Shown: positions 309 to 25,425 of the stretch, in pieces
Layout: each line of letters begins with the position of its first letter
How positions within the stretch are numbered: position 1 is the first letter of the stretch
NCBI GenBank assembly: GCA_051886215.1
Contig: JBJEXX010000111.1
Coordinates: forward strand, 2,679 to 66,678
From: Bacilli bacterium
Lineage (GTDB): Bacteria > Bacillota_I > Bacilli_A > RF39 > UBA660
Length of the DNA stretch: 64,000 nt
Direction: 5' to 3'
Notes under the pieces: model-generated
Told to the model about the DNA's origin: nothing
The model's database searches: none
Seen by the model: the letters and a program-made list of their open reading frames with translations, nothing else
Program-made: the position numbers and the translations under genes

Positions 309-334
309 AAAATAAAAAGGCCCAAATAAGGCCT
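309..334 (-). terminator. Rho-independent terminator after the coat-gene 3' segment
   Basis: On the minus strand AGGCC-ttatttg-GGCCT is followed by TTTTATTTT, starting 5 nt after the stop at 339-341. Confidence 0.55.
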
Positions 335-338
335 AATC

Positions 339-477
339 TTATCTAAATTGATTACATGATCCACATTGAATATTACTTACTACATTTTCTTCACAACATG
401 AATATTCTGGTCTATAAGTATGTCTATATATATGATGATTTATAATTCTAGTTCTGATTGGACAAACATGTCCTTGT
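339..477 (-). pseudogene. CotD-like spore coat protein, 3' (C-terminal) segment of a split gene
   Basis: 44 in-frame codons, GHVCPIRTRIINHHIYRHTYRPEYSCCEENVVSNIQCGSCNQFR*. There is no ATG/GTG/TTG start and no SD; an in-frame TAA lies 12 codons upstream of the Gly codon. The frame is continuous with ORF 7926-8159 if 7,458 bp are removed. Confidence 0.7.
473..477. repeat. Left copy of shared core CTTGT (putative att crossover region)
   Basis: This is the only k-mer of 5 or more shared by the two junctions (read by eye). It lies inside codons gg[a caa g]ga on the minus strand. Confidence 0.45.
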
Positions 478-776
478 CCTTTTTTGATATACCTAATTCT
501 TTAATATCTCCATATCTGCATCGCTGAGTTTTCCAGTTAAATCCTCTTTTTTTAATCCTAATTCAATGTATTCTCTAAAATCAGAATTTAAAACATTTTT
601 ATCAAAAACCAAAAAGATCATTTTAAAACTAATCTACAATATTTATATTATTCTAACAATATTTCAAAAGTCTATTTTTTCTTAACAACCAAAATATTTG
701 AATACTTTAGTTTAATTAACCAATCATCCGCTTTTCAGGTCCTAATGATAAACCATCAAAAGTAATTTTCTTCATA

Positions 777-1640
777 TCAAACTTCTTTATTCTCTATTAC
801 CAAATTATCTTCTACATATTCATATGATAGTGCATTGTCTTTACTTATAACAGACGCACCTAAGTTCTTTTCAATATCTTCTCTAGCCACTTTAGAAACA
901 TGACCTCCAATTTTAGCTATTTCTTTATTAGCCTTTAATCCAAATGGTTTATGTTTCTTAACTAATTCTCTAGTAGCAATTTCACTTAAATCAGTTAATG
1001 CAACTTCAATATCAGTCATGTTATCTCTCAAATTTTCTTTTCTAATATTTTTATAAAACTTATATTGTTGAGCTGTCATACCCGACCACTCTTTATATAT
1101 TTCATTAGTAAGTATCGCATAATCAACATTTTGTGTTATGCCATTCTCTTTCCAAGCGTTAGTCAATTTCTTTCTATCAAGAATTGCTTTTATTCTTATC
1201 TCAATCCACTCTAAGGTATAACCTTTAGTTAGATAATAATCTATCATTTTATCTATTCCCTTTGATGGATCAAAAACATTATCTATTTCTTCTCTACCCA
1301 GTTTTGCTAGCCATAGCTTAAATGGTTCTGCTTTAGGACTAGGTATGGACTCAATAAGTCTGAATACTCCTTCAGTATTCAATGTATCTGTCATATATTT
1401 CTTACCATCTTTTTGAGACTTTAATTTCAGTTGCACGATTTTTTCGTGCAACTCACTTCCCTCATCAATTAATCTTCTTTTTAAGTCGCTCCAATAATTT
1501 CTAGGTATCTTATTTTTTACTAATGCTGAAATTATATCGACCACACTAAAATAGTAATCTTCTTCATCATTATTCCAAACACTTCTAATTTCGTTTCCTT
1601 CAAATAATTTTGTAATTGTGTCAACTTTGTTTTGTTCCAT
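777..1640 (-). CDS. Bro-N domain protein (antirepressor/DinD-like)
   Basis: FEGNEIRSVWNNDEEDYYFSVVDIISAL is a typical Bro-N signature. The start was moved to the ATG at 1640, preceded by GGGAGGG. Confidence 0.6.
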   Translation of the reverse strand: MEQNKVDTITKLFEGNEIRSVWNNDEEDYYFSVVDIISALVKNKIPRNYWSDLKRRLIDEGSELHEKIVQLKLKSQKDGKKYMTDTLNTEGVFRLIESIPSPKAEPFKLWLAKLGREEIDNVFDPSKGIDKMIDYYLTKGYTLEWIEIRIKAILDRKKLTNAWKENGITQNVDYAILTNEIYKEWSGMTAQQYKFYKNIRKENLRDNMTDIEVALTDLSEIATRELVKKHKPFGLKANKEIAKIGGHVSKVAREDIEKNLGASVISKDNALSYEYVEDNLVIENKEV

Positions 1641-1701
1641 ATTCAACCCTCCCTTATTTAGCATTTTGTCAAAAACATTATATCAAACATTTGTTTTTAT
1701 A

Positions 1702-3261
1702 TCAATATAAAAAAGTAACTTTTATATTGATTTTTTTATTTGCAAATATTTCTATTTTATCAATTAAATTAATTATTAATTCCCTACTTGGTTCCTTCAT
1801 AGATAAAAATTTATTAATATATTCATTAATTATTTTATTTTTAGTTTCTTCATTAATATTATCATTTATACTATTATCTAATTCATTATATCTTTTTTGT
1901 TTTATATTTAGTTCCCGCTCTAATTTTTCTTTTACTCTTTCAAATTGTTCTTCAGTTATCATTTTATTTAACTTATCAATATAAATAATATCTAAATTAT
2001 CATTTATTTGTTTAATATCACTGGTAAGTATTTCTAATTCTTTTTTATTAGTAGTTTTATTTTTTTTAATTAAATTGTTTAATACAGTATTTTTGATTTT
2101 ATCCTTATCGATACAATTAAAACACATATCAGTCAAAATTTTAAGAATTACTTTTTCTAGCTTCTCATAATTATTTGAGTGAGTTGTACATAACTTTTGT
2201 TTCATATAAGTTCTATAATAATTACAAATAGTATAACATCTATTATCTTTTTTTCTTCTAGAAGTTATAGATATTCTATGACCACAATCACCACAATATA
2301 AAAGACCATCTAATAAATGTATTTCTTTCTTTTCGTTCCTTCCTACATTTTTAGGTATTCTTTTTTGAACTTCATAAAAAATATCTTTATCTATAATTGC
2401 CTCATGAGTATTTTTTACAATTATATAATCACTTTGATTATTATTTATTACTTTTTTTACTTTATAATTAACTTTACTTCTTTTATTTTGTACCATATCT
2501 CCTATATATATTCTATTAATTAAAATATCTCTTATAGTTTTTGGATGCCACTGTCCATAATTTAATTTATAATTTTTTTTCCATTCAAAGTTATAGTAAC
2601 TTGCAGGAGTTTTAATTTTTTCCTCAGTTAATCTTTTAGCAATATTAAAAAAAGATAATCCTTCTAAAGACATATTAAATATTCTTTTTACTATAATTGC
2701 TTGTTCACTATTTATTACTAAATGATTTTTGTTTTTACTATCTTTTTTATAACCAAATGGCGCTCTAGAACCTACCCACTTTCCTTCTTTTTGTTTTGCC
2801 CTTAAACTAGATTTAATTTTTTTAGAAATATCTTTGGCGTACATATCATTCATAATAGCTTTAAAAGGCGCAATATCATTATTAGAACTATCTAAGAATG
2901 TATCAATATTATCAGTAACCGCAATATATCTAACATTATGTTCTGGAAAATATTTTTCTATTAAATTTCCAGTACCAATATAGTCTCTTCCAAGTCTTGA
3001 CATATCTTTTGTAATAACCATATTTATTTTTTTTGATTCTATATCATTTAAAAGTCTCTTAAACTCAGGTCTTTCAAAATTAGTACCTGAATAACCATCA
3101 TCAATATAAATATCATAAACTTTTAAATTATTTTCTTTTACATATTGTAATAATAGACTTTTTTGATTTTTAATACTTTCACTTTCAATTTTTTTATCAT
3201 CATCTTCTCTTGATAATCTTATATAGATACCTACATTATAAATATCATGAATATCTAGCAC
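1702..3261 (-). CDS. Large serine recombinase (resolvase/invertase N-domain + recombinase domain + zinc ribbon + coiled coil)
   Basis: 519 aa. The N-terminus VGIYIRLSREDD..SIKNQ..IYIDDGYSGTNFERPEF..L carries the catalytic Ser motif. CGDCGH...C..C forms a zinc ribbon and the C-terminus is a Lys/Glu-rich coiled coil. Start codon is GTG. Confidence 0.9.
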   Translation of the reverse strand: MLDIHDIYNVGIYIRLSREDDDKKIESESIKNQKSLLLQYVKENNLKVYDIYIDDGYSGTNFERPEFKRLLNDIESKKINMVITKDMSRLGRDYIGTGNLIEKYFPEHNVRYIAVTDNIDTFLDSSNNDIAPFKAIMNDMYAKDISKKIKSSLRAKQKEGKWVGSRAPFGYKKDSKNKNHLVINSEQAIIVKRIFNMSLEGLSFFNIAKRLTEEKIKTPASYYNFEWKKNYKLNYGQWHPKTIRDILINRIYIGDMVQNKRSKVNYKVKKVINNNQSDYIIVKNTHEAIIDKDIFYEVQKRIPKNVGRNEKKEIHLLDGLLYCGDCGHRISITSRRKKDNRCYTICNYYRTYMKQKLCTTHSNNYEKLEKVILKILTDMCFNCIDKDKIKNTVLNNLIKKNKTTNKKELEILTSDIKQINDNLDIIYIDKLNKMITEEQFERVKEKLERELNIKQKRYNELDNSINDNINEETKNKIINEYINKFLSMKEPSRELIINLIDKIEIFANKKINIKVTFLY

Positions 3262-3419
3262 TATTTCTTATTATCCTTACATTTATTTGTTTTAATATGT
3301 GAAGATGATATTTCCTTTTTACTAATACTTTTTAGATAATTATTAACTTCTTTATTTAATACTTTAATAAAAATATCGTTTATATTCATATTGCCATATT
3401 CTATATTAATTTTATACAT
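3261..3419 (-). CDS. Hypothetical 52-aa basic protein, translationally coupled to the recombinase (candidate directionality factor)
   Basis: GAGGAG SD sits 10 nt before the ATG at 3419. Its TAG stop shares one base with the recombinase GTG start (TAGTG). Confidence 0.5.
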   Translation of the reverse strand: MYKINIEYGNMNINDIFIKVLNKEVNNYLKSISKKEISSSHIKTNKCKDNKK

Positions 3420-3516
3420 AAGTTATAAGCTCCTCACTTAAACTTATTAAATAAATTTATTTTTATTATTAAAAAAAATATATAAAGAAGAATATCTTCA
3501 ATATATATTTGTTATA

Positions 3517-4314
3517 TTATTTTTTTCTAATAGGAAATTGTATTTCAGTTAAATAATCATTTTCACTATCTTTATTCCAACAACCATCTATATAACATTC
3601 TCTAGCATTATCAATTATTTCATAATTATTTTCTTCAATATATTTTAAAATAATATTATAAGAATCTCTTAAATTTTCATAAGGTCCTTTATGATAAATA
3701 CATACCGCGGTAATAGGATCAGAATACATAAATTTTACTCTTTCTGTTTCTTTACCAACTTTTTCTACTGCTTGTGCATATCTAATCTTTATATCACTTT
3801 CTTTATATTCGCCATCCAAATAACTAATGTAACAATAATCTGGAACTACACATTTTAAATTTGGATTAGCTTTTGCACATTCTGTTCCTGCATTAAAAGC
3901 AAATTCTGATACTTTACCAAAATCTTCAATTATACCATCACAATAATAGATTATATAGCTTGGTATTTCTTTAATAAATATCTCATTTTTCATATTATCT
4001 CCCTCCAATAAATAATTAATTTTGGAAAGCTGTGTATTAAATAAAGCAATATTTTCTTCTATTTCTTTTTTTCTATTATTAAGTATTATTTCTACATTTT
4101 CACCATCTAAAACTTTTTTTATGTCCTTTATAGATAGTCCCATCTGTTTAAAATGAATTATCTTAGATATTTCTATTAATTGACTAGTCTCATAATATCT
4201 ATAACCGGTATTTAAATCTACATAGACAGGTTTTAATAAACCTTCTTTTTCATAATATCTAAGTGTCTTTATTGTTGTTTTAGACATACTAGAAAAATCA
4301 CCTATTTTATACAT
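3517..4314 (-). CDS. MerR-family transcriptional regulator with GyrI-like effector-binding domain
   Basis: N-terminal YKIGDFSSMSKTTIKTLRYYEKEGLL is a MerR HTH, followed by a coiled-coil linker and a ~150-aa C-terminal domain as in BmrR-type regulators. Confidence 0.8.
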   Translation of the reverse strand: MYKIGDFSSMSKTTIKTLRYYEKEGLLKPVYVDLNTGYRYYETSQLIEISKIIHFKQMGLSIKDIKKVLDGENVEIILNNRKKEIEENIALFNTQLSKINYLLEGDNMKNEIFIKEIPSYIIYYCDGIIEDFGKVSEFAFNAGTECAKANPNLKCVVPDYCYISYLDGEYKESDIKIRYAQAVEKVGKETERVKFMYSDPITAVCIYHKGPYENLRDSYNIILKYIEENNYEIIDNARECYIDGCWNKDSENDYLTEIQFPIRKK

Positions 4315-4377
4315 ATTGCGCCTCCTAAATTATTTATACAACCTACTCTAAGGGGAGAGTCAATAATTTTTTTATAA

Positions 4378-5169
4378 TTAAACTAATTCTTTTTTATTGT
4401 AACGTATTACAGTTAATACCAAAAATATAATAGATATAAAAATACTAATAAAAATAATTAATGGATTAATCGCTACTTTTTCTATAACATTTCTAATGTC
4501 CGCAAGTGTAAAAATAGAAAAATATTTTAAAAATTCAACATTTTTAGAAAGTGTAGATAAAGTTTGTAAAACATAACTAATTAAAACTAATCCTAAACTA
4601 ATTCCAAAGACTTTTTTTGTTTTATGAGTAAATGTTGATAAAAACATACAAACAAAATACATTACAACAGAAGAAAATATAGGAGTAATACTTAACAAGA
4701 TGTATTGTTTTTTATAAAAATCTCCACTCAAGGATAATCCTATAAAATTAAATATACCAAGTAATAATACTAATAATAATATATATATTAATCCTACTAC
4801 TACTTTATTAAAAATAATATTATTTCTACTGACTGGTAAACTATTTAAGTATTCAATGGTTTTATCACTTTCTTCTTTTAATAAAATTCTAGATCCTAAT
4901 ATTCCTGAATAACATCCTGTAATTAATAAAACAAATACAAAACCTTCAGTTTTTAACCATCCAAAAGCAGTATCTATTGATGAAATATCCATATTAAAAG
5001 CTTTTAACATATCTTCAGGAAATATTTTCATCATTTCATTCATCATTTCTATATTTTCACTATTACTTATGGAAGGATATATAAGAAAAACTACTAAAAA
5101 TAATCCTAATAATATTGTCAACCAAATCATAAAATTTTTAAAATTAACTTTAAGTTCTCTTTTAAACAT
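4378..5169 (-). CDS. ABC-2 type transporter permease
   Basis: 263 aa with about six hydrophobic segments, immediately downstream of the ABC ATPase. Confidence 0.7.
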   Translation of the reverse strand: MFKRELKVNFKNFMIWLTILLGLFLVVFLIYPSISNSENIEMMNEMMKIFPEDMLKAFNMDISSIDTAFGWLKTEGFVFVLLITGCYSGILGSRILLKEESDKTIEYLNSLPVSRNNIIFNKVVVGLIYILLLVLLLGIFNFIGLSLSGDFYKKQYILLSITPIFSSVVMYFVCMFLSTFTHKTKKVFGISLGLVLISYVLQTLSTLSKNVEFLKYFSIFTLADIRNVIEKVAINPLIIFISIFISIIFLVLTVIRYNKKELV

Positions 5170-5180
5170 ATTATCACCTC

Positions 5181-6044
5181 CTACTCATAATAATGTAAAA
5201 ATATATCTTCCAAAGTCGCTTCTTCAATTAATATCTTATCTATATTATACTTTGAAAGCTTTTTTATTAATTTATCTGGTAATAGTTCATTTTGAAAACG
5301 TATAGTGTCATTTTCTTGAGTAATAACACTTATTTTTAAATCTTTAATTATTTTATTTATTTCAGAAGAAGAAATAGTTACAAAAGTTAAATTTTTTTTA
5401 TGCATTTCTTCAATCGTTTCAACTTTTAATAATTTGCCATCTTTAATAATACCAACACGATCACATATTTTAGATACTTCATTTAAAATATGCGTAGAAT
5501 AAAATATGGTTGTTCCTTTTTTCTTTTCTTCTTGCAATAATTCATAAAAAACTTTCTGCATAATAGGATCTAACCCGCTTGTTGGTTCATCTAATATTAA
5601 CAGCTTAGGTTTATGCATAAAAGCAAGTACTATACCCAATTTTTTAGAATTTCCTAAAGATAAGTCTTCTATCTTTTTTGTTTCATCTAATTTAAATTTA
5701 TTAACTAATTCACATCTTCTTTTATGAATATTTTTTTTATAAAAAGATTCATGATAATCTAACATTTCTTTAACAGTTAAATCATCATATAAATGAATTT
5801 CACTAGGTAAATAACCAATAATTTCTTTTAAACAAATATTGTTTTTATTAAAAACTTGACCATTTATTAAAACTTCTCCTTCAGTTTTATTAATTAAATT
5901 CATAATTGAACGTATAGTTGTAGATTTACCCGCTCCATTTGGACCAATAAATCCAAATACTTCTCCTTCTACTAAAGATAAAGTTAAGTTTTCTACTCCT
6001 AATATCTTACCATAATATTTAGTTAAGTTTTTTATTTCTAACAT
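5181..6044 (-). CDS. ABC transporter ATP-binding protein
   Basis: Walker A GPNGAGKST, signature-like LSLGNSKK, Walker B LLILDEPTSGLD. Confidence 0.9.
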   Translation of the reverse strand: MLEIKNLTKYYGKILGVENLTLSLVEGEVFGFIGPNGAGKSTTIRSIMNLINKTEGEVLINGQVFNKNNICLKEIIGYLPSEIHLYDDLTVKEMLDYHESFYKKNIHKRRCELVNKFKLDETKKIEDLSLGNSKKLGIVLAFMHKPKLLILDEPTSGLDPIMQKVFYELLQEEKKKGTTIFYSTHILNEVSKICDRVGIIKDGKLLKVETIEEMHKKNLTFVTISSSEINKIIKDLKISVITQENDTIRFQNELLPDKLIKKLSKYNIDKILIEEATLEDIFLHYYE

Positions 6045-6207
6045 ATCTAACTCCTCACTATTTTTATATACAAACTATATATAAATTTATTATACTATAT
6101 AAATATTTTTTTGAATAAAAAAAATTTTTACCACTTATTAACTTATTTAAAAATAAACAAATTAAAATATTTTTCAACGAATTTATTCGCTACAAATATT
6201 TTAGAGT

Positions 6208-6251
6208 GTATAAAAACATCCTATGTTAATAAATTATTTTTATAGGATGTT
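6208..6251 (-). terminator. Putative terminator after the Fic gene
   Basis: 10-bp stem AACATCCTAT/ATAGGATGTT with a 17-nt loop, followed by TTTTAT on the minus strand. Confidence 0.45.
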
Positions 6252-6262
6252 TAATCTTTTTA

Positions 6263-7012
6263 TCAGTTTTCCTCTATTTCAAAATCTAATAACTCTTCAC
6301 AAGTTTTTTCATATAAATCCTGTTCATGTTTAATAGTATCAATTAAGAACATTTTATCATTTTCATATTCTTTTAATCCTCTCATATAATAAGGTTTATC
6401 ATCATCTAATACAATAAAGGGCATAATGTTATTTCTTAAACATTCTTTAAACATTATAATTCTACCAACACGACCATTTCCATCTCCAAATGGATGTATT
6501 CTTTCAAATCTAAAATGAAAATCAACTATATCTTCTAAAGTAATATTAGTTTTAGAATTATATTCATTTAATAATTCTTCTATTTCTTGTTCTACATTTT
6601 CTGGTGCAGTAGTATTAATAACATTAACTACACCTATAATATTAGGAACAACTTTAAATCCACCAACATTATATCTAGGATTTTCTTCATCACTAGTATT
6701 TCTTTTTAAAATCTTATTCATTTCAATTATCATATCTTTAGTTAAAGGTTCATCAACATTATCTAATATATAATCAAACAATTTAAAATGATTTTTAGAT
6801 TCAGTTAAATCATCTAATTTAATTAAATCATCACTTTTAGGAATAAATGAAGATGTATCAAATATTGCTTCAGTTTGTTCACTAGTTAATCTACTACCTT
6901 CAATTTTATTTGAATTATAAGCAAAATTAACTTGTGAATAATGATATATATTCCCTTTAAATTTAGATTCTTTTTGTTTAATTAATTCATTTTTAATTTT
7001 ATTTATATTCAT
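6263..7012 (-). CDS. Fic family protein (AMPylase-type, N-terminal inhibitory motif)
   Basis: Fic motif HPFGDGNGRVGR. The N-terminal SNKIEG fits the (S/T)xxxE(G/N) inhibitory helix motif. Confidence 0.9.
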   Translation of the reverse strand: MNINKIKNELIKQKESKFKGNIYHYSQVNFAYNSNKIEGSRLTSEQTEAIFDTSSFIPKSDDLIKLDDLTESKNHFKLFDYILDNVDEPLTKDMIIEMNKILKRNTSDEENPRYNVGGFKVVPNIIGVVNVINTTAPENVEQEIEELLNEYNSKTNITLEDIVDFHFRFERIHPFGDGNGRVGRIIMFKECLRNNIMPFIVLDDDKPYYMRGLKEYENDKMFLIDTIKHEQDLYEKTCEELLDFEIEEN

Positions 7013-7039
7013 AAAATCATCTACCTTTCAAATTATAAT

Positions 7040-7801
7040 TTATCTATTATTTCTAGTACATAGTTGATTTAACGGACATTCTTCACAATTCTTCTTGTTA
7101 CAAAATGAATTTCCTAACTCCCATAAATATTTATCTATATCACTTGGATTGATATTTAATTCTTTACCTACATTAATATAAGAATCAGATAATTTTGAAA
7201 TTTCACTATTTGAAAGACTGTTTACATTAATTATATTGGTTAAATAACTAATTTCAATATCATGTCTATCTATTGGAATAGAATTTACCTTTTCTTTGAA
7301 ATTGCATATATTAGAATCACTTATTATTCGTATTAGTAACCCCCCTGTTTTTTGCCCATAACCTTTAATACTTCGTATAAATTGGCTTAATCCATCAATG
7401 TTTTTAATAGTTTTTAAGTAATTTAAAATATTATCATATTTAAGTAATTCATTAGATAAATTAATCCATTTTTTAGTTGCCAAATTAGGATATCTTGGAT
7501 GAATATTATTTACAATAATATCATTCAATTCGTTTTCTTTCATTTGACTAACATATTTAGGACAAAATATACTAGGATATTTTTCATAAGTATTAATCAA
7601 GTTTTTATGATATATTTTAGAGCGCACACCATAATCTAATAAACAAGAATAAAACATATATATAAAATATTCATTTGTACCATAATTTATATTTTTTGGA
7701 AATTCTACATTTGCTAGTCTTTCTTTGTCCGCAAAATAATTATTAAGTTTTTCTATAATTTCTTTACATCTATTATAATCAATATTCAAAATTATCACCA
7801 C
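7040..7801 (-). CDS. HhH-GPD / endonuclease III-like protein with C-terminal Cys cluster
   Basis: IKGYGQKTGGLLIR is a helix-hairpin-helix-like motif followed by PIDRHD. C-terminal CNKKNCEECPLNQLC is C-x4-C-x2-C-x5-C. The start codon is uncertain (GTG at 7801 or TTG at 7789). Confidence 0.4.
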   Translation of the reverse strand: MVIILNIDYNRCKEIIEKLNNYFADKERLANVEFPKNINYGTNEYFIYMFYSCLLDYGVRSKIYHKNLINTYEKYPSIFCPKYVSQMKENELNDIIVNNIHPRYPNLATKKWINLSNELLKYDNILNYLKTIKNIDGLSQFIRSIKGYGQKTGGLLIRIISDSNICNFKEKVNSIPIDRHDIEISYLTNIINVNSLSNSEISKLSDSYINVGKELNINPSDIDKYLWELGNSFCNKKNCEECPLNQLCTRNNR

Positions 7802-7925
7802 ATTTTCAAATTAATAATTATTAATTTAATCTATACCAATTATACCATACAAAAAGACTTTTATTATCAAAATGCATTTAAATTTGTACTTATTTTCTCT
7901 TAATTATTTTGTCTATCATAAATTA

Positions 7926-8159
7926 TCACTCTTGTGGTACTTCATGATAAATATTTCTATGAACGCATCTTTCTTTCATTGGTTCAGCGATTGGTTGTAC
8001 AGGACAACCTCCACCCATAGCAGGCATATCAGCTTGGGCCATAGAACCTTCATATTCTGTATTTACTGCCATATTCATTTCATTAGTTATTTGATTATTG
8101 TCACCAAAGAAATTAGCAGTCATGTCATTATCTCTATCATAACAACGATCTTGAAACAT
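7926..8159 (-). pseudogene. CotD-like spore coat protein, 5' (N-terminal) segment of a split gene
   Basis: AGGAGG sits 8 nt before the ATG. The 77-aa product ends ..GGCPVQPIAEPMKERCVHRNIYHEVPQE*, and the stop falls 2 codons past the shared pentamer. Confidence 0.7.
7931..7935. repeat. Right copy of shared core CTTGT (putative att crossover region)
   Basis: Lies inside codons cc[a caa g]ag on the minus strand, in the same phase as the left copy. Confidence 0.45.
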
Positions 8160-8244
8160 ATTTATTTCCTCCTATCTAGTCTATCATATTCAAATATGGT
8201 ATAAATGTTATATTTGAATAGCCTAAATAAAAGAAAAAATACCA

Positions 8245-9552
8245 TTAAAATGGCATTTTCATATTTCCATTAGAAAATTGTTTCATCATTTTTTTCATTT
8301 GTTCAAATTGCGTCAATAACTTATTTACTTCTTGAACACTAGTTCCACTACCTTTAGCTATTCTAGTTTTTCTACTAGCCTTTATTATTTCAGGATTACG
8401 TCTTTCCTTAGGAGTCATAGATAAAATAATGGCCTCAATCCTATTTATCAATTTTGGATCAATATTAATATTATTAAGTCCTAATTTAGATGCTCCTGGA
8501 ATTAACTTTAACAATTTATCAAGAGGTCCAAGTTTTTTAATTTGTTTCATTTGTGATAAAAAGTCCTCTAAATCAAACTTACCACTTTTCATTTTTTTTG
8601 CAGCATTCATTGCTTCTTTTTCATCTATAACTTCTTCAGCTTTTTCTACTAAAGAAATAATGTCTCCCATTCCAAGAATTCTACCAGACATTCTTTCGGG
8701 ATCAAAGTATTCAATGCCATCTAGTTTTTCACTAACACCAATAAATTTAATTGGTACATTAGTCAAATGTCTAACAGATAAAGCGACTCCACCTCTAGTA
8801 TCTCCATCTAATTTAGTTAAAATAACACCTGTAAGTGGTAATTTATTATTAAATCCAGTAATAACATTAATTGCATCTTGTCCCATCATAGCATCAATAA
8901 CTAATAGAATTTCTTCAGGATTAACTGAATTTTTAATATTATCTAATTCATCCATTAAATTATCATCTATATGAAGTCTACCAGCTGTATCTATTAAAAC
9001 ATAATCATATCCATTGTCTTTTGCATATTTAATTGCATTCTTACTTATTTCAATAGGATTATTTTTTCCTTCATCATAAACTTCAATATTTAATTGTTTA
9101 CCAATTTGCTTTAATTGATCAATCGCTGCAGGTCTATAAACATCACAAGCAACTAATAAAGGTTTTTTAGAATTTTTCTTTCTAATTAAATTAGCAAGTT
9201 TTCCTATAGTAGTTGTCTTACCACTACCTTGAAGTCCTACCAACATACATATTGCTGGATTTCCTTTCAAATTCAGTTCTTTACTTTCTCCTCCAAGAAG
9301 TTCTGTAAGTTCATCCTTTACAATTTTAACAAAAACTTCTCCAGGTTTTAAACTAGTAGCAACTTCTTTTCCTAATGCCTTTTCTTTAACTTTAGAAGTA
9401 AACTCTTTAACTACTTGATAATTAACATCAGCTTCTAATAAAGCTAATCTAATTTCACGCATCATTTCTGAAATATTTTCTTCTGTTATTTTTCCATAAC
9501 CCTTAATCTTGTGTACTACATTTTGTAATCTATCAGATAATCCTTCAAACAT
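8245..9552 (-). CDS. ffh: Signal recognition particle protein Ffh
   Basis: MFEGLSDRLQ N-terminus, GLQGSGKTTT P-loop, DTAGR, TKLDGD, and a Met-rich C-terminal M domain. The first ATG after AGGTGA was taken as the start. Confidence 0.95.
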   Translation of the reverse strand: MFEGLSDRLQNVVHKIKGYGKITEENISEMMREIRLALLEADVNYQVVKEFTSKVKEKALGKEVATSLKPGEVFVKIVKDELTELLGGESKELNLKGNPAICMLVGLQGSGKTTTIGKLANLIRKKNSKKPLLVACDVYRPAAIDQLKQIGKQLNIEVYDEGKNNPIEISKNAIKYAKDNGYDYVLIDTAGRLHIDDNLMDELDNIKNSVNPEEILLVIDAMMGQDAINVITGFNNKLPLTGVILTKLDGDTRGGVALSVRHLTNVPIKFIGVSEKLDGIEYFDPERMSGRILGMGDIISLVEKAEEVIDEKEAMNAAKKMKSGKFDLEDFLSQMKQIKKLGPLDKLLKLIPGASKLGLNNINIDPKLINRIEAIILSMTPKERRNPEIIKASRKTRIAKGSGTSVQEVNKLLTQFEQMKKMMKQFSNGNMKMPF

Positions 9553-9590
9553 TTTCATCACCTAATTAAAATATTAACACAAAACATATA

Positions 9591-23857: not shown

Positions 23858-23949
23858 TACCAAAGTTAAATATAATGTAAAAATAAGTATTTTTCTGAAA
23901 TAGTAAGCATAAATTTAAATGAATATAAAAAGAAAAGGTAAGTGAATAT

Positions 23950-25425
23950 ATGGAAAAATATGAAATTATAAAAAATATTGCCACAAGAACTAATGGCGAC
24001 TTATATTTGGGTGTAGTTGGAGCAGTTAGAACAGGGAAATCAACTTTTATCAAAAAAATGGTTGAAACATTAATAGTGCCTAATATAAAAGATGAATATG
24101 AAAGAAAAAGATGTTTAGATGAGATACCACAAAGCGCACAAGGAAAAACAATAATGACTACAGAACCAAAATTTGTACCTAGTACGGCAGCCAAAGTACA
24201 TATAGATGAAATAGACTGCAATATAAGATTAATTGATTGTGTAGGATATATGATAGATAATGCCAAAGGTGCTGAAGATGAAAACGGTCCTAGAATGGTT
24301 AAAACACCTTGGTACGATGATGAAATACCTTTTATTGAAGCCGCAGAATTAGGTACTGAAAAAGTAATTAAAGAACACTCATCTATTGGTATTGTCATAA
24401 CAACAGATGGCTCTATTGGTGAATTTGAAAGAAATGATTATAAAGAAGCCGAACAAAGAGTCATAACAGAATTAAAAGAAATAGGAAAACCTTTCATAGT
24501 TATTTTAAATTCTACTCATCCAAATACTAAAGATACTCAGGATATAGCTATTTCATTAAGAGAAGAACATAACACTCCCGTTATACCTATGAATATAGAT
24601 ACTATGACCGAAAAAGATATGTTAAACATATTAAGAGAAGCACTGTATGAATTCCCAGTTCTAGAAGTTAATGTTAATATGCCAGAATGGATTGCTATAT
24701 TAAATCCTGAACATGAAATAAAAAAAGAATATATTAAAGCTATAAAAGAAAGTGTTATAGAAGTAGATAAGTTAAGAGATATAGAATCAATCACAGATCA
24801 TTTTAAAGATATAGATATTATTGATAGCGCATATATGTCTGATGTTAATACTTCAACTGGTGTTGTAACTATAAACTTAACATCTCCACCTAGTTTATAT
24901 AATGATGTATTAACTAATATAATCAAAATAGATGTTACTAATAAAGCTGAATTACTATCATTATTCCAAGATTATAACGAAGCAAAAACAGAATATGATC
25001 AAATAAAATATGCTTTAAAAATGGTTAAACAAACAGGATATGGTATAGCTACCCCTTCTTTAAAAGATATGAAATTAGATTCTCCAGAAATTATCAAACA
25101 AGGAACAAGATATGGAGTTAAATTAAAAGCTGTTGCACCATCTATTCATATGATTAGAGTTGATGTTAATTCTACATTTGAGCCAATCATAGGTAGTGAA
25201 ATGCAAAGTAAAGAACTAATTGATTATATGATGAAAGATTATAAAACTGATCCTCAAAATATTTGGAAAAATGAAATATTTGGAAGAAGTCTAGATTCAA
25301 TCGTTCAAGAAGGTATCCAATCAAAAATTGCTCTCATGCCAGATAATATAAGATTTAAATTACAACAAACATTAACTAAGATCGTTAATAAAGGATCAAA
25401 TAATATGATTGCTATTGTATTATAA
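23950..25425 (+). CDS. spoIVA: Stage IV sporulation protein A (spore coat morphogenetic ATPase)
   Basis: The N-terminus MEKYEIIKNIATRTNGDLYLGVVGAVRTGKSTFIKK is nearly identical to the Bacillus SpoIVA Walker A region. 491 aa. Confidence 0.97.
   Translation: MEKYEIIKNIATRTNGDLYLGVVGAVRTGKSTFIKKMVETLIVPNIKDEYERKRCLDEIPQSAQGKTIMTTEPKFVPSTAAKVHIDEIDCNIRLIDCVGYMIDNAKGAEDENGPRMVKTPWYDDEIPFIEAAELGTEKVIKEHSSIGIVITTDGSIGEFERNDYKEAEQRVITELKEIGKPFIVILNSTHPNTKDTQDIAISLREEHNTPVIPMNIDTMTEKDMLNILREALYEFPVLEVNVNMPEWIAILNPEHEIKKEYIKAIKESVIEVDKLRDIESITDHFKDIDIIDSAYMSDVNTSTGVVTINLTSPPSLYNDVLTNIIKIDVTNKAELLSLFQDYNEAKTEYDQIKYALKMVKQTGYGIATPSLKDMKLDSPEIIKQGTRYGVKLKAVAPSIHMIRVDVNSTFEPIIGSEMQSKELIDYMMKDYKTDPQNIWKNEIFGRSLDSIVQEGIQSKIALMPDNIRFKLQQTLTKIVNKGSNNMIAIVL

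Follow-up and report, generated by a model that had tools for sequence, protein, structure and literature searches.

In a stretch of 64,000 nucleotides from contig JBJEXX010000111.1 of a Bacilli bacterium (referred to below as the window), a gene resembling the spore-coat gene cotD is split by an island of 7,464 bp that carries a large serine recombinase and no phage genes. We regard this structural description of the split gene and the element as virtually certain. Comparison with related sequences further makes it probable that the island, lying in a predicted mother-cell coat gene, is excised in the mother cell during sporulation and that the gene is thereby restored. Loci retrieved for comparison are designated L and proteins P, each followed by a number.

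A cotD-like gene interrupted at a single codon

On the minus strand of the window, an open reading frame (ORF) running from 8159 to 7926 begins with ATG behind an AGGAGG ribosome-binding site (RBS; 8168-8173) and encodes 77 aa with the C-terminus ..NIYHEVPQE. Further along the same strand lies a headless open frame (GHVCPIRT...NQFR, stop at 339) that has neither a start codon nor an RBS and is followed by a terminator made of a hairpin and a T-run. The pentamer ACAAG occurs in both segments (7935-7931 and 477-473), in the same phase and at a spacing of 7,458 bp. All of these features had been described in an initial annotation made from the DNA sequence, and they are present as described; that annotation joined the halves at ACAAG into a product of 120 aa. 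A search with this 120-aa join as the query retrieved 489 homologs, many of which cover 100% of the query without interruption, and the best match (P0001) was 87% identical (E = 4.5e-64). Uninterrupted orthologs that align across the junction thus exist, and the homolog support for a split gene is, by these alignments, far beyond chance.

The intact orthologs read HEVP-HVCPIRT, without the residues Q-G of the 120-aa join, and their DNA at the junction is GAAGTNCCACATGTTTGTCC; therefore, the correct join is shorter by 6 nt and falls on ACA (minus strand 7935-7933 and 471-469 in the window). Comparison of the junctions of nine distinct family members revealed that CA are the sole bases common to the left (attL) and right (attR) attachment sites, as in L090, where the junctions read ..GTACCT/CA/AGAG.. 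and ..CAAGGA/CA/TGTA... The core of serine recombinases is 2 bp long, and the crossover dinucleotide, as read from these junctions, is CA (minus strand 7934-7933 and 470-469), which forms the first two bases of the His codon in ..HEVP/HVCP... From the CA core and the breakpoints of the empty sites described below, it follows that the element measures 7,464 bp and that the restored product has 118 aa (..HEVP/HVCPIRT..). The ACAAG join was rejected: Q-G occurs in no ortholog, the 120-aa product gave no CotD match against Pfam, and the empty sites break 6 nt away. The claim that removal of the interval restores one ORF therefore stands, whereas the 120-aa product was two codons too long and the 118-aa alternative, mentioned at the same time, proved to be the correct one. 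The parts of the split gene are as follows.

7933..8159, minus strand: 5' segment of the cotD-like gene (codons 1-75 plus CA of codon 76), 100% identical to residues 1-75 of the join
471..7934: intervening element, 7,464 bp with one CA copy counted, delimited by the junction comparison and the empty-site alignments
339..470, minus strand: 3' segment of the cotD-like gene (codons 76-118 plus stop), without start codon and RBS
309..334, minus strand: intrinsic terminator of the cotD-like gene, stem AGGCC...GGGCCT followed by TTTTATTTT

The 5' ORF runs two codons (Q E) into the element and stops at 7926. Promoter, RBS and start stay with one half, the stop codon and the terminator with the other, and the split gene is flanked by ffh (8245-9561) and rpoZ (2-214). 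The 5' half is identical to the NCBI protein MGN0974256.1, encoded on a contig of 78 kb in a metagenome-assembled genome (MAG) labelled 'Bacilli bacterium'. An exact-sequence contig look-up of the window recombinase and the 5' half returned no match, and a cluster look-up later matched the 5' half.

Empty and occupied alleles within species

The cluster (90% identity) that contains the 5' half from the window also holds intact 118-aa proteins. One of them, P0282, differs from the in silico 118-aa join by a single residue (A43T) and another, P0280, by two; since the interrupted 77-aa protein P0283 carries the same two variants as intact P0280, one allele is seen both occupied and empty. In the contigs encoding P0280, the gene order is ffh, the 118-aa gene, rpoZ and recX, so that an empty site between ffh and rpoZ, the existence of which had been proposed as a check, is found in related genomes. 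Empty-site contigs of the same species align to window positions 8796 to 7933 and 471 to 1 with 97-98% identity and with a 3-nt overlap, ACA. Similarly, an empty-site contig from the species of L107/L108 matches both flanks at 99% and breaks at ACA, and for four of eight other hosts, public assemblies contain exactly the protein predicted from joining the halves at CA. The best 80 loci of a scan over genome contigs contained intact orthologs only.

Within a species, some genomes carry the element and others lack it. Contigs with the two alleles were counted in three species.

L095-type species: intact in 901 contigs, interrupted in 785 contigs
L107-type species: intact in about 25 contigs, interrupted in about 640 contigs
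L113-type species: intact in about 400 contigs, interrupted in about 790 contigs

The occupied share of contigs was thus 47-96% in the three species counted. In some species, the interrupted allele is the majority, and its halves are identical to intact alleles that look functional. In a related genome with an empty site of the P0001 type (L006, 506-2367; 84-88% nucleotide identity), the cotD-like terminator and rpoZ are separated by about 1.9 kb containing three additional ORFs, which the window lacks (corresponding region 215-340).

Gene content and attachment sites of the element

The element has a GC content of 20-25%, compared with 28-32% in its flanks, and all of its ORFs are co-directional with the split gene. 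Its two ends and its ORFs, listed from attL to attR, are the following.

7911..7951, minus strand: attL, with host B arm TTTATCATGAAGTACCA, CA (7934-7933) and element P' arm AGAGTGATAATTTATGATAGAC, from the nine-member junction comparison and the empty-site alignments
7040..7801, minus strand: cargo ORF, 253 aa, weak AGOG/EndoIII-type matches (E = 0.026, below cut-off)
6263..7012, minus strand: cargo Fic/DOC-family protein (PF02661, E = 1.2e-15)
5181..6044, minus strand: cargo ABC ATPase (PF00005, E = 3.8e-27)
4378..5169, minus strand: cargo ABC-2 permease (PF12679, E = 1e-19)
3517..4314, minus strand: cargo MerR-type regulator with a GyrI-like ligand-binding domain (PF13411, E = 6.4e-17; PF06445, E = 5.2e-11)
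3429..3471, minus strand: conserved non-coding block before the small ORF, ...AATAAGTTTAAGTGAGGAGC in the window, with a -10-like box at 3441-3448
3261..3419, minus strand: small ORF, 52 aa, stop overlapping the recombinase start, alignable in 14 family members
1702..3261, minus strand: large serine recombinase, 519 aa, GTG start (Resolvase, E = 4.8e-25; Recombinase, E = 1e-25; Zn_ribbon_recom, E = 5.4e-09)
777..1664, minus strand: Bro-N domain protein, 295 aa, between the recombinase and attR (PF02498, E = 2e-10)
493..621, minus strand: 42-aa ORF without family match, possibly not a gene
451..492, minus strand: attR, with element P arm GTATATCAAAAAAGGACAAGGA, CA (470-469) and host B' arm TGTTTGTCCAATCAGAAC, from the junction comparison

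The consensus of nine family members is gene..GTNCCN/CA/AGAGTGATAATTTATGATAGA for attL and TCTATCAAAAAAGGGCAAGGA/CA/TGTATGTCC..gene for attR. A short identical core is hence found at both junctions, CA in the family and ACA in the window. The P and P' arms are related to each other as an imperfect inverted repeat (13/25 positions in the window and 12-17/25 across the family), and TATCA motifs lie symmetrically about the CA, as expected for attP. The P arm in the window, TATATCAAAAAAGGACAAGGA, deviates from the family consensus by two mismatches. The attR core (window 460-479, plus strand) also contains a hairpin-capable inverted repeat, GGACAA..CATG..TTGTCC, which the terminator scan flags on the plus strand; this repeat results from the mirror relation between the inner P arm and the B' arm of the host.

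The recombinase ORF is full length, all three Pfam domains score above their cut-offs and the catalytic motif GIYIRLSRED is intact. The protein is 100% identical to an NCBI 'recombinase family protein' of a Bacilli MAG (P0121) that occurs once in the collection. A Pfam scan of the element ORFs found no phage structural, packaging, lysis, replication or relaxase genes, which bears out the earlier statement that structural and replication genes of phages are missing, and a terminator scan detected no terminator-like site inside the element. By its genes and its ends, the element is an island without phage genes, bounded by attachment sites of a large serine recombinase.

A widespread recombinase family faithful to one target

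Relatives that share 78-84% identity with the recombinase make up more than 120 clusters (clustered at 90% identity), and every one of these stems from gut metagenomes or MAGs. Gut metagenomes of humans and animals contain the family in abundance, and it is polymorphic within species. In every fetched locus that had about 60-86% recombinase identity and enough flanking sequence, a cotD-like gene was split at the same codon, with the recombinase a few kb downstream of ffh, between a 5' ORF ending in ..H.V(P) and a headless H(V/I)CP ORF. Insertion at this codon was seen in at least nine lineages of hosts, which are widely separated (Ffh 67-80% identical; recombinases 70-86% identical). The elements measure 3,048, 3,892, 3,962, 4,702, 4,936, 5,408, 6,289, 7,464 and 8,655 bp, and the smallest consists of two small cargo genes, the small ORF and the recombinase. 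By these comparisons, the element is one member of a very large, widespread and hitherto undescribed family that uses this site. The closest solved structure is the N-terminal catalytic domain of TnpX (2mhc, E = 1e-24), and among INPHARED phages there was no recombinase above 60% identity, the best full-length matches being about 30% identical.

The cargo is mosaic and includes, across the family, Fic, ABC transporter, MerR, MazEF, NERD, reverse transcriptase and RhuM genes. The element in L004 shares the Fic gene of the window at 89% nucleotide identity next to a differing neighbouring gene, Fic recurs in the elements of L090, L098 and L180, and the Bro-N protein is found in the same position in L180. 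In the species of the window itself, element copies have RhuM in place of the first two cargo genes, and near-identical variants of the element are present in other samples. A close relative of the host (L001-L003, Logan contigs) carries a different element at the same CA, with the P' arm CAACCTTGCTTCCTTATGATATACA and an adjoining Polysacc_synt-family gene; its flanks are about 96% identical at the nucleotide level to window 7910-8794 and its host 5' half is 99% identical in amino acid sequence, so the site is used by more than one element type.

Hybrid attP-like sites, composed of a P arm, CA and a different P' arm, were seen inside or at the end of elements at L113:13856 and L180:10884, which suggests that two related elements had inserted in tandem. 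L180 is an IMG/VR contig that carries a reverse transcriptase and two Fic genes, and no cotD 3' half follows the right end there.

More distant relatives were found with other surroundings. A sister clade with about 57% recombinase identity (L116-L154, L181 and L182; e.g., L136:9786-11640) has the same kind of small ORF, the same conserved upstream blocks and a different target: directly after the recombinase stop lies a headless ORF of one to three LysM repeats (IVSGDSLWSIA..), which implies insertion at the very start of a gene for a small LysM protein. The attL site and the 5' half of this LysM-gene target were looked for in the sister clade and not located. In a distant clade with about 41% identity (L151-L178 and L183-L186), a small ORF (..LPVVHCTY..EKSISEILEESFRLYLGRILA..) with the same strand-then-helix pattern lies just upstream of the recombinase, and having a small partner may be general among the large serine recombinases of this branch.

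Predicted coat-type nature and promoter of the host gene

The 118-aa join matches the CotD family of Pfam (PF11122, Spore-coat_CotD) with 17.7 bits (E = 0.0053) over residues 56-107, a region that spans the junction, and this score lies below the gathering cut-off of 22 bits. Of its orthologs, 28 out of 28 match PF11122 at E <= 1 (best, 2.1e-5), and two database relatives carry a precomputed PF11122 match. An hhalign comparison of the family with Bacillus subtilis CotD gave E = 9e-4 and 33% identity over 40 columns; this result is a lead rather than a proof. No NCBIfam model matches the cotD-like family. Both proteins share the core ..PIVxP..C.H...VPH..P..T..NH.H..H..., and the host protein differs from CotD by an additional N-terminal region of low complexity and by a Cys-rich C-terminus (SCCEENVVSN..CGSC). 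The CotD likeness that had been noticed in the joined product thus holds in that the 118-aa join matches PF11122 across the junction, although at a sub-threshold score, and the gene, with a predicted coat function, is a distant relative of cotD rather than a proven ortholog.

The promoter region of the gene has the following layout.

8182..8226, minus strand: cotD-like promoter region, TTAGGC box (8221-8226), AC (8207-8208), 16-nt spacer and -10 box AATATGATA (8182-8190)

The TTAGGC box fits the GerE consensus TRGGY, and for cotD of B. subtilis, too, a promoter of the sigmaK type and a GerE-like box are known. When the upstream regions of 80 orthologs were aligned, they yielded T[AG]GG[CT]A ... 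[AG]C-N16-CATAnnATA just before the RBS. Promoters of sigmaK have AC at -35 and CATA---TA at -10, and mother-cell promoters in general share the CATA -10 box and differ at -35 (PMC3789822). The cotD-like promoter is thus of the sigmaK type, which independently supports a role of the gene in sporulation, and expression late in the mother cell is predicted. In the window, the -10 box of the gene begins with A instead of C, as in its closest relatives; GAATAnnATA in place of CATAnnATA was seen in the window and in L003, L005, L009-L011, L036, L039, L041-L046, L051, L053, L054, L087 and L088. The window promoter of spoVIF shows a perfect AC-N16-CATATAGTA.

That the host is a spore former had been deduced from other genes of the window, and family matches confirmed their identity: SpoIVA (TIGR02836, 678 bits), SpoVIF (PF14069, 77 bits), an alpha/beta small, acid-soluble spore protein (PF00269, 70 bits) and Cse60 (PF10957, 76 bits). 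Among named organisms, those most closely related are Clostridium sp. CAG:417 and CAG:451 and Ca. Onthousia, all of them uncultured gut Bacilli, and some orders of uncultured Bacilli, e.g., RFN20, are predicted to include sporulators (PMC10868615).

A conserved small ORF in front of the recombinase

In every relative, a small ORF of 52-65 aa overlaps or abuts the start of the recombinase gene. It can be aligned in 14 members, including the 57% tier, and has the consensus MDKYKINYIFNxEKDINDILIKVLNKELKKYI... The overlap with the recombinase start suggests translational coupling, and we infer that the small ORF is a candidate recombination directionality factor (RDF). The conserved non-coding block in front of it has the consensus TTACTAAAA-N12-TCCATAA[AG]TTTAAGTGAGGTG in the clade that occupies cotD-like genes and ATTACTAAAA-N12-CCATAGAATT[TA]ATTGGAGGT in the sister clade, and the architecture common to both is TACTAAA-N14-CATAnnnT followed by the RBS. 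CATAnnnT is a canonical mother-cell -10 box (PMC3789822).

The idea that AATA in the small-ORF promoter co-varies with the promoter of the host cotD-like gene was rejected, for in L113 the element has AATA and the host gene CATA. Upstream of spoIVA (window 23880-23950), the sequence is GCATAAATTTAA, in which the string CATAAATTTAA equals the conserved box before the small ORF of the element family and is followed by GAATATAAA; this region is possibly a sigmaE-type promoter of the host.

Proposed excision in the mother cell and rival explanations

According to the explanation we favor, the island would stay integrated in vegetative cells and in the forespore and be inherited there. Co-expression of the small ORF (3261-3419) with the recombinase (1702-3261), to which it would be translationally coupled, would take place in the mother cell from the promoter of the CATAnnnT type; a second, non-exclusive route would be read-through from the sigmaK-type promoter of the host gene, which is conceivable because the element genes are co-directional with that gene and no terminator was detected between them. 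The recombinase and the small protein, acting as its directionality factor, would then recombine attL with attR at CA, releasing a 7,464-bp circle and rebuilding the coat-protein gene with its promoter, RBS, stop and terminator. By analogy with known systems, mother-cell expression of the small ORF/recombinase pair is presumed to drive this recombination. A broader proposal, to which we give somewhat less than even confidence, is that there exists in uncultured gut Bacilli a lineage of islands with non-phage cargo (Fic, toxin-antitoxin, reverse transcriptase, NERD and transporters) that may be parked in late mother-cell genes (CotD-like, or LysM-repeat in the sister clade), be removed only in the mother cell by a TnpX-like recombinase together with a new family of small directionality factors under one conserved sigmaE/sigmaK-type promoter, and occupy about half to nearly all genomes of some species.

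Several observations weigh against excision in the mother cell. No sample was seen to hold both an empty and an occupied allele (5-10 places per allele seen), so that the empty sites demonstrate strain polymorphism or mobility and not developmental excision, and the attP junction of an excised circle was not found in IMG/VR or in the fetched loci, save for the hybrid sites of tandem arrays. The -10 box before the small ORF in the window reads AATAAGTT, compared with CATAAGTT in the family (A for C), and the L113 copy is likewise altered; the -35 block fits cleanly neither sigmaE ('ATA') nor sigmaK ('AC' at 16 nt), its AC lying 18 nt upstream. Scans of the small ORF against Pfam and PHROG matched no family and gave no similarity to a known RDF; RDFs are not known to share a common fold. 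The recombinase and host trees disagree (between L090 and L095, Ffh is 67% and the recombinase 86% identical), so that the insertions may be recent, which weakens the argument from undecayed gene halves; together with the mosaic cargo and the different element found at the same CA, this disagreement indicates that the family moves horizontally. Finally, the match to CotD remains under the Pfam cut-off, cotD of B. subtilis is non-essential, with mutants showing a mild phenotype, and disruption of the CotD-like gene, which may be dispensable, might be tolerated.

The horizontal spread, the lack of same-sample or attP evidence and the possible dispensability of a CotD-like protein make an ordinary site-specific mobile island of the Tn4451/TnpX type the main rival. 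The recombinase of such an island would by chance recognise a conserved stretch of the cotD-like gene, its insertion would simply inactivate a dispensable coat gene and its excision would be sporadic or linked to transfer; the finding would then be reduced to a site-specific island disrupting a minor coat gene. The catalytic domain of TnpX as the closest solved relative, the degenerate promoter box in the window, and the presence or absence of the element within species along with its tandem copies, which are signs of an active mover, all agree with this account. We nevertheless think it unlikely, since (i) the Pfam scan of the element ORFs shows no relaxase, Mob or oriT-type gene, (ii) one single site is used across hosts down to 67% Ffh identity, (iii) the CATAnnnT box before the small ORF and recombinase is conserved in two clades, (iv) even where the interrupted allele is in the majority both halves are still identical to intact alleles, and (v) comparable insertions in sigK, spsM, spoVFB, spoVR and gerE excise specifically during sporulation, the excision from yabG being growth-phase-dependent (PMC5025042, PMC4191935, PMC5595907, PMC10747680).

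It is improbable that the window copy is a fixed, decaying remnant that no longer excises, with the coat gene permanently lost in this strain. Its altered -10 box, the two mismatches in its P arm and the single occurrence of its exact recombinase in the collection would fit such a fate, but the recombinase is full length with all domains and the catalytic motif, the two halves of the gene are undamaged and 99% identical to intact alleles, and near-identical variants of the element persist in other samples. Moreover, the cotD-like promoter of the host and those of its closest relatives also have AATA for CATA, which may therefore work in this lineage in the AATA form. More improbable still is a defective prophage, i.e., a classical skin-like phage remnant. 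The Bro-N domain protein and the listing of two relatives (L179 and L180) in IMG/VR speak for it; against it, neither the element nor the relatives of 3-11 kb examined contain capsid, tail, terminase, portal, lysis or replication genes, no INPHARED phage has a close recombinase, and the cargo is of the non-phage kinds named above. The initial annotation had called the element skin-like, and this remains apt insofar as a serine-recombinase element without phage genes precisely splits a sporulation-type gene; the developmentally regulated excision on which the term chiefly turns is a prediction here, and the phage character of skin and SPbeta does not apply.

Comparison with known intervening elements

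Gene-intervening elements are a classic case of programmed DNA rearrangement in bacterial development, with six targets named in the literature searched, nearly all of them in cultured Bacillus or Clostridium species. The known elements bear their own recombinase, which is of the serine type where stated (PMC5025042, PMC4191935, PMC5595907, PMC10747680). The targets described in the literature searched are sigK, spsM, spoVFB, spoVR, gerE and yabG, and no element in a cotD-type gene was found there, in line with what had been assumed at the outset. This known class of elements in sporulation genes is thus extended to a new target gene and a new host clade, with a non-phage core that is compact.

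The nearest analogue is gin in gerE of B. cereus ATCC10987 (PMC5595907). Both elements are non-phage and split a tiny gene (225 bp for gerE and 357 bp here) that is active late in the mother cell or, in our case, predicted to be so, and in both a short identical core, of 9 bp in gin and 2 bp here, flanks the two gene segments (PMC5595907). The serine recombinase GirC of gin is accompanied by a small accessory factor, GirX, as the recombinase here is by the candidate small ORF (PMC5595907). In contrast, gin has 28.6 kb and three recombinase genes, compared with 7.5 kb (3-9 kb in the family) and one recombinase here; it resides in the B. cereus group in a different gene, whereas the present hosts are uncultured gut Bacilli; and its excision was demonstrated experimentally, while that of our element is predicted (PMC5595907).

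A model for the small ORF is offered by skinCd in sigK of C. difficile, where the recombinase CD1231 works with the small RDF CD1234 (PMC5025042). CD1231 is expressed in the vegetative cell as well as in the two compartments of the sporangium, and it is the sigmaE/SpoIIID-dependent expression of CD1234 that restricts skinCd excision to the mother cell (PMC5025042). Unlike CD1231 and CD1234, the small ORF and recombinase described here overlap, which implies co-expression; skinCd also differs in having a sigma-factor gene as its target and in being prophage-like, whereas here a coat-type gene is occupied by a non-phage element (PMC5025042). The elements skin (sigK, SpoIVCA), SPbeta (spsM, SprA/SprB), vfbin (spoVFB) and vrin (spoVR) likewise carry their own recombinase, and their precise excision rebuilds an ORF expressed in the mother cell, with the germ-line copy in the forespore keeping the element (PMC4191935, PMC5499854). 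They are, however, prophages or remnants of 20-135 kb, unlike the present element, and are targeted to genes for a regulator or an enzyme rather than for a structural coat-type protein (PMC4191935, PMC5499854). Finally, yin of C. botulinum V73 resembles our case in that a coat-related, sigmaK-dependent gene (yabG) is interrupted and in that some strains carry the element while close relatives lack it, with attB conserved in the empty strains; yin is a putatively functional prophage of a single strain, whereas the family described here is non-phage and spread over many host lineages (PMC10747680).

TnpX, the enzyme with the closest solved domain, is a large serine recombinase of the Clostridium mobilisable transposons Tn4451/Tn4453 and excises a circular intermediate. 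A Mob protein and a resistance gene are encoded by Tn4451, and its TnpX works without an RDF, on sites that are loosely defined. In comparison, the element ORFs here include no mob gene and the target is one and strictly conserved.

To the known cases, the present one adds a structural coat-type target, a host clade known only from metagenomes with predicted sporulation, a non-phage core of about 3 kb in its smallest form (att sites, small ORF, recombinase and two small cargo genes) and, behind a conserved promoter, what may be a new family of directionality factors. As the element is polymorphic within species, natural pairs of occupied and empty strains are available, in which tuning of spore properties could be distinguished from a safe ride for the island. 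The att sites with their 2-bp core and the recombinase are, in addition, potential parts for genome engineering.

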